Below, one piece after another: positions 21,501-24,500 of a DNA stretch of 64,000 bases (within the stretch, counting starts at the first letter, position 1; each line of letters begins with the position of its first letter). The position numbers were made by a program. Location: NCBI RefSeq assembly GCF_056712565.1, contig NZ_CM160072.1; one strand, written 5' to 3'.

Positions 21501-24500
21501 CCACTTCGCACAGTAGCTGCCCGGTCACCGGCGTCAGGTTCTGGTAATACTCGCCATCGGCAGGCGCTACCCATTCGCCACCGATAAAGTTGTCGTAGCG
21601 GGCTTTTAATTTGAGGGGGAAACCATACTCGCCGGGCTTAATCTGTGCTGAAGGGGGATTATTGGTCATGATCGTCTCCTTGCTGTGTGAGGTATAACAA
21701 GGGTAGACGTGACTGGCGAAATCTTCGCCAGTCGGTAACAGCTTTACGACGGCTATCACGAATTTACGGGCAAAAGCTACAGCGGGTAGTGTGCGACGTA
21801 CACTGCTTGCTGGTTATTAATTCTTTTCTCTTGCGCGAATCCTTCTTTAACAATTGTCCGTAAATCGGTCCGCGCCGTATTATCCGAGACGCTCAGACTC
21901 ACACTAATTTCAGCAACTGTGTACTCTTTCCCCGGATTGGCGAGCATCACATTCAGGAGCGTTACCTGGCGCGGATTCAGGCGTTTAAGCACACCAGAGC
22001 TAAACAGCACACTATCGAGTTTTGCGCTTCGTTGTGTAATTTCATCGATATGCTGCTGCCAGTTTTGCAGAGCACGTTTAATGACACCCGCCTGATATTC
22101 AAGGAAATAAGTCAGATCCATACCATCTGATTCAGTGTACTGGTAGCTGGCGGCATATTTGACCGGTGCAGCATGAAGCAAACTGCTGATGGAAATATAT
22201 TTAAAGACATCGTAGCCCGATTTCAGCATATACCAGTAAAACAGCGCCCGACTGGTGCGCCCGTTGCCATCGCGAAATGGATGTTCATGGGCCAGCATAA
22301 AATGCAGAATGCAGGCACGGACCAACGGATGAATATACCCTTCATGGCTGTTTAACCACTGGCAAACTTTTTCCAGCCGTTCCGGTAACAATGCCGCAGC
22401 GGACGGTTGATGCACTATATTGCCATCATAGTCGGCGATCACAACATCATCTGTTTCACGAAATTCTCCCGGACGATATTTCGCGTCATTGATTCCACCC
22501 ATACCAATGGCATGTAACTGGCGAATAAGCGCAGGTGTCAGCGGTTCTGCGAGTAAGTGCGGAATTTCCGCCATCAGCCGGGCATTTCCCGCAATCATAT
22601 GCTCGTCTTCAGTGCGTGGCGACCGCCCTGTTTCCAGCATTTTTCTCGCCACCAGCGTTGTAGTATTCGCACCTTCCAGCTGGGAGCTGGTGATCGGCTC
22701 TTCCAGGCGTAACTGGCTTAACTCGGCTCCGGCCCCGCGTAACCGTTCAGTCTGATCTTTCAGCGCCAGCGCGGTAGCACGTTTGTCGACAAGCTCGCAC
22801 GCTTCTGCAATCACCGGGGTAATGTTGAATCCGGCCTGTTCACCCGCTTCATTGCAATAATTAATTCGTTGGATCGCCGCGTTGCGCGCCAGACGGGTAA
22901 GCGTCCACGCCACATCGACGTTTTCTCCTTTTTTGATGCGGTACTGCAACTCATCAAAAGGCAGATAACGTCCTTTTTCATCGGTAACCCGGTTAAAGCG
23001 CAGGTGGGCCAGGAGTTCCTCACCCGATAAGTGTGATAAAGGAATAAGTCCGGGAGGTGATTTGATAGCCATGTGCTTATCTCAAAAAAGCGCAATATTG
23101 AGATAGTGTATAGCAGGAAAGAGAAACTATCTCAAAAAAAGCAAGTTTTGAGATAGTTGAAAAAGCGGCTGACAACTCGCCAGCCGTTGTGGGAATGATG
23201 ATTACATCGCTGCGCGATAAATCGCCACAATTTCTTCGTGAGTTGCCTGAATCGGGTTAGTAAAGCCGCAGGCATCTTTCAGGGCATTAGTCGCCAGAAC
23301 CGCGAAATCTTCTTCTTTCACGTTCAGGTCGCGTAGGCCTGCCGGGATATCCACTTTCTTCGCCAGTTCACGGATGGCGTTAATGCAGGCTTCAGCACCT
23401 TCCGCGTCGTTTTTACCTGTCACGTTCACGCCCATTGCAGCGGCACAATCACGCAGACGTGCAGCGGCGACTTTGCTGTTGAATACCTGAACATGCGGCA
23501 GCAAAACGGCGTTACATACACCGTGTGGCAGGTTGTAGAAACCGCCCAGCTGGTGCGCCATCGCATGAACATAACCCAGAGAAGCATTATTGAACGCCAT
23601 ACCGGCGAGGAACTGGGCATAAGCCATTGCTTCACGCGCTTTCGCATTACTGCCATCTTCAACGGCTAACGGCAGGTTTTCGGCAATCATGGTCACGGCT
23701 TTCAGTGCACAAGCGTCAGTGATCGGCGTGGCGGCAATAGAAACATACGCTTCGATAGCGTGCGTTAAGGCATCCATACCCGTTGCGGCGGTCAGTGACT
23801 TCGGCATACCAATCATCAGAGAGGAGTCATTGACAGAAAGCAGCGGAGTTACATGTTTATCCACAATCGCCATTTTGATGTGACGCGCTTCGTCAGTGAT
23901 GATGCAGAAACGGGTCATTTCAGAGGCCGTACCCGCCGTGGTGTTGATGGCGATCATCGGCAGCTGCGGTTTTGCAGAGCGGTCAACGCCTTCATAATCG
24001 CGGATGTCACCGCCGTTGGCTGCAACCAGCGCAATACCTTTTGCGCAGTCGTGTGGAGAACCACCGCCTAAAGAAATCACGCTATCGCAATTATTTTCTT
24101 TAAGTAATTTCAAACCTGCGGCGACGTTTTCCGTGGTGGGGTTAGGTTGGGTGCCATCATAAATAACGCTAAAAATATTGCGTTCTTCCAGTGCTTTTTG
24201 CACATCACCCGCCATACCCAATTTCGTTAACATATTGTCGGTGACAATTAAGGTACGGGTAAATCCATAATCTGCCATCATATTCATTGCATCATTCAAT
24301 GAATCAGCACCAATAACATTCACGGAAGGAATAAAAAAGGTTGAAGCTGCCATAACACACTCCTGAAAGTGTAAAAAAGGGCGGGCAGCTTACTGAGGAT
24401 TTTCATTTGAAAATATGATCAACATTACCGTTTATTAAAATATTTTTAATAAAAAGCACGTTACATTCATCAAATAACGTGCCTTCTTAACATTAATAAG

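Follow-up and report, generated by a model that had tools for sequence, protein, structure and literature searches.

Two conserved 28-bp palindromes upstream of an Escherichia coli Fic gene as probable operators of a self-controlling promoter

The stretch of DNA analyzed here (64,000 nucleotides of contig NZ_CM160072.1, NCBI RefSeq assembly GCF_056712565.1, matching the chromosome of Escherichia coli ATCC 11775 at 100%; hereafter, the window) contains a gene for a Fic family protein that is preceded by two palindromes. On the minus strand, selB is followed by yiaY (23202-24353), the Fic gene (21777-23072) and aldB, and the palindromes lie between the yiaY stop codon (23202-23204) and the Fic start codon (ATG, 23072-23070). 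An earlier note on this DNA, made from the sequence alone, had put the size of this gap at 129 bp and described in it two inverted repeats, IR1 and IR2, and the coordinates and the sequence agree with most of that description. The start-distal IR2 has perfect 13-bp arms (AACTATCTCAAAA / TTTTGAGATAGTT, at 23125-23137 and 23146-23158) around the 8-nt loop that had been claimed, and the proximal IR1 shares with it, again as claimed, an 8-mer core with an N12 spacer. Because IR2 holds the 8-N12-8 core of IR1, the two are one 28-bp unit that is repeated, namely, TATCTCAA-N12-TTGAGATA. We refer to the two copies, both given on the minus strand, as the predicted proximal operator O1 (identical to IR1, with perfect 8-bp arms; 23078-23105) and the predicted distal operator O2 (contained within IR2; 23128-23155). 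The arms of O2 extend to 13 bp because its spacer starts with AAAA and finishes with TTTT. Compared as direct repeats, O1 and O2 are 80% identical over 30 nt. The distances given previously need some adjustment. O1 ends 5 nt (AGCAC), not 6 bp, before the ATG, and the reported separation of 47 bp is correct if counted from the start of the IR1 core to the start of the extended IR2 arm, but the two cores are 50 bp apart from start to start.

The palindromes are far from what would be expected by chance. The window has two occurrences of TATCTCAA-N6-14-TTGAGATA, whereas none of 100 dinucleotide-preserving shuffles has any, and the 8-mer of the arms is found seven times compared with 1.6 expected, four of the seven occurrences being located in the yiaY-Fic gap. 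A search of the 64-kb window for further copies of the palindrome returned none besides O1 and O2.

We examined the conservation of the sites in a set of 80 loci encoding Fic homologues with 36-95% identity, with one genome included per species. Allowing at most one mismatch, TATCTCAA-N12-TTGAGATA has 31 matches in the 80 loci, all of them within 200 nt upstream of the Fic match; the same palindrome has zero matches elsewhere in the approximately half a megabase of flanking DNA of these loci. In a strict test, the proximal palindrome was detected in 48 of 78 homologue loci, compared with 1.6% of control windows. When the loci are aligned by the start codon, the proximal palindrome ends 0-7 nt before that codon across genera, and, in 21 non-redundant loci from other genera, it is accompanied by a distal copy situated 49-51 bp farther upstream. 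This layout is common to Escherichia, Pantoea, Photorhabdus, Buttiauxella, Glaciecola, Marinomonas, Alcanivorax, Pseudoalteromonas and many Pseudomonas, and is also present in the cyanobacterium Leptolyngbya. The copy of the gene carried by a Klebsiella plasmid has a single proximal site, TAACTCAA-N12-TTGAGTTA, that ends 6 nt before the ATG. Homologues on mobile elements are rare, with 19 on plasmids and three weak phage matches; the Fic family is mainly chromosomal.

The pattern of conservation within the sites is informative. Identity to the E. coli sites is 89% in the arms and 41% in the spacers, which are 79% A+T and always 12 nt long. Among 336 pairs of mirrored arm positions, 283 have the consensus base on both arms, 34 carry a change on one arm, with the loss of pairing, and 16 are changed on both arms while remaining complementary. 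The identity of the bases is thus conserved around a spacer of fixed length and free sequence, which indicates selection on the bases themselves and is the signature of a site for a dimeric protein. No conserved flanking gene, regulator or antitoxin was found across the loci, the only regularity being genus-level synteny in Pseudomonas.

The association between the paired motif and the Fic gene is nearly exclusive. A metagenome search using the paired motif alone yielded 74 stretches, in 69 of which a Fic-family open reading frame (ORF), or an N-terminal remnant of one, starts no more than 23 nt downstream. As for the other five stretches, in one, the motif lies 78 nt from the end of the contig, another has only a C-terminal winged-helix fragment nearby, the third one contains a decayed N-terminal Fic remnant, and two are orphan pairs without a downstream ORF. 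No other gene family was found behind the paired motif in any of the 74 stretches. In viral contigs, the exact single palindrome has 15 isolated matches with no Fic homologue nearby, which we take as background. A literature search for the motif strings returned unrelated primer and hairpin sequences only and no report of the motif.

Among 5426 complete E. coli genomes, approximately 1575 carry the Fic gene and both palindromes, including the uropathogenic CFT073 and ST131, as well as NU14, ATCC 25922 and O157:H7. In about 500 genomes without the Fic gene, one palindrome remains, altered by a substitution in one of its arms (TTTTGAGAGAGTT), and the remaining Fic-less genomes have neither palindrome. 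The palindromes occur at one place per E. coli genome and are not a dispersed repeat. All four half-sites are unchanged across the Fic-positive alleles of ATCC 11775, O157:H7, an ST80 strain and E. albertii, in which the cassette occupies the same locus as in E. coli; what differs among the alleles is the O2 spacer and the stretch between O1 and O2. Both types of empty sites stop exactly behind a half-site (...ACTATCTC|TGTAA...; L001:1585-1600 and L002:1580-1640). At its 3' end, the Fic gene reads CACACTACCCGC|TGTAGC (window positions 21777-21795), which can be aligned with CAACTATCTC|TGTAAC (23146-23158) and resembles this half-site junction, so that an imperfect direct repeat of about 10 bp flanks the cassette. 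We tentatively read the empty sites as remnants of cassette loss.

The Fic protein itself (WP_000985743, 431 amino acids; 21777-23072, minus strand) matches the Pfam Fic family with an E value of 4.6e-19. Its catalytic motif, HPFRDGNGRTSR in the translation (residues 264-275; 22248-22283, minus strand), corresponds to invariant columns in 69 homologues. N-terminal to the Fic motif, the segment S129-SQL-E133-G134 (22671-22688, minus strand) fits the inhibitory-helix pattern (S/T)xxxE(G/N), with S129, Q131, L132, E133 and G134 invariant in the 69 sequences. Given that the Fic motif and the upstream inhibitory motif are on the same chain, this protein is a class II Fic enzyme, namely, a SoFic-like AMP-transferase. 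The AlphaFold2 model of the monomer, which was built on the 69 sequences, has a mean predicted local distance difference test (pLDDT) score of 91 and places a winged helix-turn-helix (HTH) domain at the C-terminus (21780-21989, minus strand), where the Pfam families HTH_DeoR and HTH_11 give weak matches. In the model, this domain consists of helices 367-378, 386-393 and 397-409, followed by wing strands 413-418 and 422-427. The third helix, DNTARTDLRTIVK (residues 397-409; 21846-21884, minus strand), is the predicted recognition helix; A400 is invariant in the 69 sequences, and N398, T399 and L404 are invariant or nearly so. The modeled helices 86-98 and 101-113 sit where the dimer helix of SoFic, a Fic protein of Shewanella oneidensis, aligns, as far as can be judged from a model of the monomer.

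Structure comparison using Foldseek retrieved as the top matches CbFic2 (8CIL), SoFic (3ZCN and 3EQX) and CccR (7XUX), with about 355 aligned columns each, and the sequence profile aligns through the C-terminal domains of 8CIL and SoFic, up to position 429-430. The PADLOC model for SoFic, a single-gene anti-phage system, matches residues 96-427 with an E value of 1.5e-41, yet the score against the NCBIfam SoFic equivalog NF046030 is 37.1 bits, far below the cut-off of 550; therefore, the E. coli protein is a relative of SoFic rather than the same protein. Residues 1-95 (window positions 22788-23072) form an extra N-terminal region of about 95 residues that is specific to this subfamily, is confidently folded in the model and contains the conserved motifs MxIKxPP and KGRYLPFDEF; SoFic, CccR and CbFic2 lack this region.

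The half-site variants appear to track the recognition helix of the Fic protein, with the caveat that the co-variation is not corrected for kinship. Proteins with a helix of the xSDNTAR / CSYNTA class, found in Enterobacterales and most other gammaproteobacteria, are encoded behind half-sites of the form T(A/G)TCTCA(A/G)-N12. The CAYNTA class, represented by six loci from at least two clades (Pseudomonas, Pseudoalteromonas and Parashewanella), goes with (T/C)ATTTCAA-N12-TTGAAAT. The I[SA]xNTARKYL class, found in Campylobacterota, a Pasteurellaceae genome (Cricetibacter) and relatives, is accompanied by TAAC(T/G)CAA-N10-TTG(A/C)GTTA. Together with the lack of a conserved neighbor gene, this co-variation leaves the Fic protein itself as the sole binder that would fit.

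The positions of O1 and O2 suggest how they would act. The predicted −35 element, TTGAGA (23130-23135, minus strand), lies inside the promoter-proximal arm of O2, 17 nt upstream of the predicted −10 element, TATACA (23107-23112, minus strand; alternatively, TACACT at 23105-23110), and the probable Shine-Dalgarno sequence, GAGAU (23079-23083, minus strand), is part of the right arm of O1. A scan for consensus sigma-70 promoters reported no site because it demands T at position 6 of the −10 element; the promoter was therefore assigned by alignment with other genera, in which the −35/−10 arrangement of the E. coli Fic gene recurs and in which most two-palindrome loci have a TAnnnT-type hexamer just upstream of the proximal palindrome. 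Transcription is predicted to start at about 23098-23100, inside the left arm of O1, and the leader would be approximately 26 nt long. O2 would thus overlap the −35 element, and O1 would extend over the transcription start and the ribosome-binding site, including all of the short leader. By homology, the Fic protein is expected to dimerize via its N-terminal helices, with one winged HTH per subunit. Such a dimer would set the two recognition helices into major grooves two helical turns apart; the half-site centers are 20 bp, or about 68 Å, apart across the A+T-rich 12-bp spacer. About five helical turns separate O1 from O2, with both on one face of the DNA, and binding may therefore be cooperative. 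We propose that, with O1 and O2 occupied, RNA polymerase would be blocked, resulting in negative autoregulation that would keep the level of this potentially toxic enzyme low and constant.

Taken together, these observations make it probable that the two 28-bp palindromes are the operators of a compact, self-controlling promoter that belongs to the Fic gene. The sites exist far beyond chance expectation, travel with the gene, co-vary with the DNA-binding helix and are specific to this gene. In addition, we infer that the binder is Fic itself, that the promoter elements are those described above and that the outcome is repression rather than activation. The earlier note had taken the repeats for paired operators of a dimeric DNA-binding protein and had named the C-terminal domain of Fic as the obvious binder. 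This interpretation gains support from the conserved sequence, spacing and position of the sites upstream of Fic homologues in unrelated contexts and phyla, the co-variation with the helix, the near-exclusive link between motif and family, the confidently modeled winged helix, which is homologous in fold to CccR, SoFic and CbFic2, and the precedent of CccR and SoFic.

Several observations weigh against this interpretation. The roughly 500 Fic-less E. coli genomes mentioned above retain one nearly intact palindrome, and, in the Pseudomonas fluorescens group, where we read the site as reshaped, most loci have no proximal site by the strict palindrome test. The co-variation between helix and half-site is confounded by common ancestry, the promoter hexamers are weak (TATACA) and were not reported by the consensus scan, and the conservation of the right arms may partly reflect their doubling as the −35 element and the ribosome-binding site. 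Furthermore, CbFic2 binds random DNA (PMC10628234), and a Fic winged helix is therefore no guarantee of sequence-specific binding.

Among the alternatives, the palindromes could act as RNA hairpins, with IR2 as a back-up terminator or insulator after yiaY and IR1 as a leader hairpin that hides the ribosome-binding site. IR2 is indeed flagged as terminator-like by a lenient scan and its predicted fold has an energy of −14.1 kcal/mol (z −6.2), and the probable Shine-Dalgarno sequence falls within the right arm of IR1. However, only 3 of the 13 pairs in IR2 are G-C and its tail, TCTCTTTCCT, is poor, and IR1 forms a weak hairpin (−7.3 kcal/mol, z −1.4) that has two G-C pairs only, a 12-nt loop and no U-tract. 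Neither repeat has the G+C-rich stem directly followed by a U-tract that characterizes intrinsic terminators, which bears out the earlier argument to the same effect. yiaY has a strong terminator of its own (23159-23186, minus strand), which forms the upstream boundary of the element and lies outside it. This terminator consists of the stem-loop CGGCTGGCGAGTTGTCAGCCG, G+C-rich and located at 23166-23186 (RNA fold of −14.2 kcal/mol), followed by the T-run CTTTTTC, and is intact in all E. coli strains compared, including the Fic-less ones. Accordingly, the palindromes are not the yiaY terminator, and the notion that they would prove to be just that in strains without the Fic gene fails. Moreover, pairing-breaking one-sided changes in the arms exceed the compensatory ones (34 vs 16), a loop of fixed length and free sequence is typical of a protein site, and the elements recur at loci where no gene reads into them. 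With the predicted transcription start inside the left arm of IR1, the full IR1 hairpin would be absent from the mRNA. A scan of positions 22900-23400, on both strands, with the Rfam 15 covariance models gave zero matches at E values up to 1. We consider a role of the palindromes as RNA structures highly improbable.

It is also very unlikely, in our assessment, that the palindromes are operators of another regulator encoded elsewhere. In favor of such a regulator, Fic has been assigned as the binder by deduction, and the site scan of ATCC 11775 covers the 64-kb window. Against it, the sites accompany the Fic gene in Enterobacterales, a cyanobacterium and Campylobacterota without any conserved neighbor, the sequence and spacing of the half-sites shift together with the Fic recognition helix, and the paired motif precedes no other gene family; that each of these lineages has a host factor of matching specificity is unlikely. 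The chances appear slimmer still that the palindromes are scars or recombination sites of cassette insertion, or a small mobile repeat, with no regulatory role. The presence of the cassette in only about 1575 of the 5426 E. coli genomes, the empty sites of both types that end exactly after a half-site, and the resemblance of the Fic 3' end to the junction are compatible with such an origin. However, the palindromes are confined to one place per E. coli genome and lack the dispersal that defines repetitive extragenic palindromic (REP) sequences and miniature inverted-repeat transposable elements (MITEs), none of the isolated matches in viral contigs is near a Fic gene, and, relative to the promoter and start codon, the sites hold the same register at loci of unrelated context. 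Operator-like repeats downstream of the cassette, sought among the homologues, are not general and were found only in Pantoea sp. SOD02 (L083), and we rather take the half-site at the junction for a leftover of cassette loss. The suggestion in the earlier note that the repeats might be the scar of an insertion event thus fails: the palindromes are part of the cassette, and what the Fic-less strains carry at their empty sites are remnants of these palindromes. Integron attC sites were considered as well and dropped, the core RYYYAAC/GTTRRRY being absent.

An alternative that is compatible with operator function is that the sites serve, instead of or besides repression, as docking sites that switch the state of the enzyme. 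By analogy with related proteins, this is a tentative and, on balance, unlikely possibility. DNA stimulates the activity of CbFic2, which has been proposed to shift from AMPylation to deAMPylation upon DNA-induced dimerization (PMC10628234); the dimer state controls AMPylation and toxicity in SoFic and EcSofic, and the toxicity of EcSofic requires the C-terminal domain. Nevertheless, with two sites per chromosome, no more than a few dimers could be bound at a time, and the overlap with the predicted −35 element, transcription start and ribosome-binding site already suggests transcriptional control.

Self-control through palindromic operators has precedents among proteins with the Fic fold. In the phd/doc system of phage P1, a toxin of the Fic/Doc fold is held down via palindromic operators that overlap its own promoter. 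There, the DNA-binding domain resides on a separate antitoxin, with the toxin serving as co-repressor, whereas in the E. coli Fic protein, the inhibitory helix and the DNA-binding domain are within the toxin polypeptide, with no conserved partner gene. A small partner ORF flanking the Fic gene was sought in E. coli and no plausible one was found; the adjacent small partner gene that is the mark of two-gene toxin-antitoxin systems, such as class I Fic proteins with their antitoxins, phd/doc and Sofic-AS1, is thus missing.

One of the closest known systems is CccR of Yersinia pseudotuberculosis (YPK_0951; PDB 7XUX), a dimeric class II Fic protein that combines an N-terminal inhibitory helix with a C-terminal HTH (PMC9755527). 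CccR represses its own promoter via the C-terminal HTH, and the dimer is required, as demonstrated by electrophoretic mobility shift assays, DNase I footprinting and lacZ fusions (PMC9755527). Like CccR, the E. coli Fic protein belongs to class II and has a C-terminal HTH, and the structure of CccR matches the Fic model over the full length, although, in a sequence search, the Fic core alone aligns. The DNA-binding helices in the CccR dimer are 70 Å apart (PMC9755527), close to the approximately 68 Å between the half-site centers of the E. coli palindromes. The operators, however, are built differently: the CccR operator, AGATAATCAT-N26-ATGATAATCT, is located near the −35 and −10 elements of its own promoter (PMC9755527) and consists of one site with 10-bp boxes and a 26-bp spacer, in contrast to the two 8-N12-8 sites that are 50 bp apart at the E. 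coli gene. CccR is also shorter (380 compared with 431 amino acids) and is a type VI secretion effector encoded adjacent to a type VI secretion system effector locus, whereas the E. coli Fic gene stands alone between yiaY and aldB.

SoFic and EcSofic share with the E. coli Fic protein the domain order, namely, the dimerization helix, inhibitory helix, Fic core and winged helix. Dimeric SoFic (SO_4266; PDB 3EQX and 3ZCN) binds specifically within the 100 bp upstream of its own start codon (bioRxiv 10.64898/2026.07.09.737422). The SoFic-bound 100-bp fragment F1 contains ATGTCGAT-TGA-ATCGACAT and further ATGTCGAT half-sites (Table S2 of bioRxiv 10.64898/2026.07.09.737422); these elements, identified in our reading of that table and not pointed out by the authors, are a candidate SoFic operator. 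Both the motif and the geometry of this fragment differ from those of the E. coli palindromes. EcSofic is a dimeric toxin with a 47-amino-acid antitoxin encoded downstream (PMC12249575), and at the E. coli Fic gene, there is neither room nor conservation for such a downstream gene. An ATG-initiated ORF for 47 amino acids, located at window positions 23132-23275 on the minus strand, shares sequence with the 3' end of yiaY and extends into the distal palindrome. Although AS1, the EcSofic antitoxin, is equally long, this ORF is situated upstream of the Fic gene; it cannot be conserved elsewhere and is probably spurious. CbFic2 of Coxiella burnetii (CBU_0822; PDB 8CIL), which is the best match to the E. 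coli protein in sequence profile and fold over the Fic core plus the winged helix, binds random DNA with high affinity through a C-terminal HTH, in a manner linked to dimerization, and targets host histone H3 (PMC10628234). In contrast to the E. coli palindromes, CbFic2 has no known specific site or described operator architecture. The principle of autoregulation is thus already known from related Fic-HTH proteins, having been shown for CccR and suggested for SoFic; judged from the sequences, the operator and the two-site geometry of the E. coli Fic gene are distinctive and widely conserved.

These comparisons indicate that autoregulation is a conserved design of the Fic-winged-helix group, with operators that diversify along with the recognition helix. 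For a large uncharacterized subfamily of such proteins, our analysis provides a precise candidate operator, two copies of the 8-N12-8 palindrome 50 bp apart. The natural series of variants, in which the change from S to A in the helix goes with that from C to T in the half-site and N12 alternates with N10, is a ready specificity set for the study of DNA reading by winged helices. In E. coli, the variable yiaY-aldB intergenic region can be explained by the presence or loss of one autoregulated cassette.

A more far-reaching scenario, whose parts are to be taken jointly and which we regard as doubtful, is that the operator pair and the gene make up a self-contained, host-independent module, a single SoFic-type abortive-infection gene that could move between phyla along with a promoter, a translation signal and a repressor of its own. 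Under this scenario, a half-site would double as the −35 element (TTGAGA) and as the ribosome-binding site (GAGAU), and the DNA-bound dimer would be the resting state of the enzyme, inactive or deAMPylating, such that, when the dimer is displaced in the course of phage infection or DNA damage, the toxin would be derepressed and activated at the same time. Cassette gain and loss might, in addition, take place with the half-sites as break points, as the E. coli empty sites hint.

Some loci depart from the common arrangement. In the P. fluorescens group (L034-L057, L067, L068 and L076), the proximal site has taken the form AAACTCG-N6-CGAGTTT, with TTGAGACA after it, and the distal site is TATTTCAG-N12-TTGAGACA or TTGAGTCA; the gene is found there in conserved synteny, between a gene for an RND-type transporter and one for a small lipoprotein. 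In Alcanivorax quisquiliarum (L058:1811-1838 and L058:2868-2995), the Fic gene is preceded by three palindromes in tandem, at −133, −83 and −33, and a fourth palindrome, CATCTCAAAAAATTGGATTTTTGAGATG, is located about 70 nt upstream of a HigA-like XRE gene that is 1.2 kb away; this fourth copy is possibly a second target, or else a coincidence. The Fic stop codon of Pantoea sp. SOD02 is followed after 17 nt by a sequence nearly identical to the upstream operator, spacer included (L083:4316-4343), so that the Fic gene is flanked by two copies. Several metagenome contigs carry intact paired palindromes ahead of decayed genes: L141 has a truncated Fic ORF of 55 amino acids and L103 is similar, in L133, the N-terminus is fused to the HTH helix, and L109 and L148 have no ORF. 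The sites can therefore outlast the gene for some time.

Beyond aldB, the genes yiaT-yiaW, which on the K-12 map lie between sgbE and aldB, appear to be absent from ATCC 11775, and in the region concerned (19389-21759), the sgbE/araD-like gene (19389-20084) is only 46 nt from the end of aldB.

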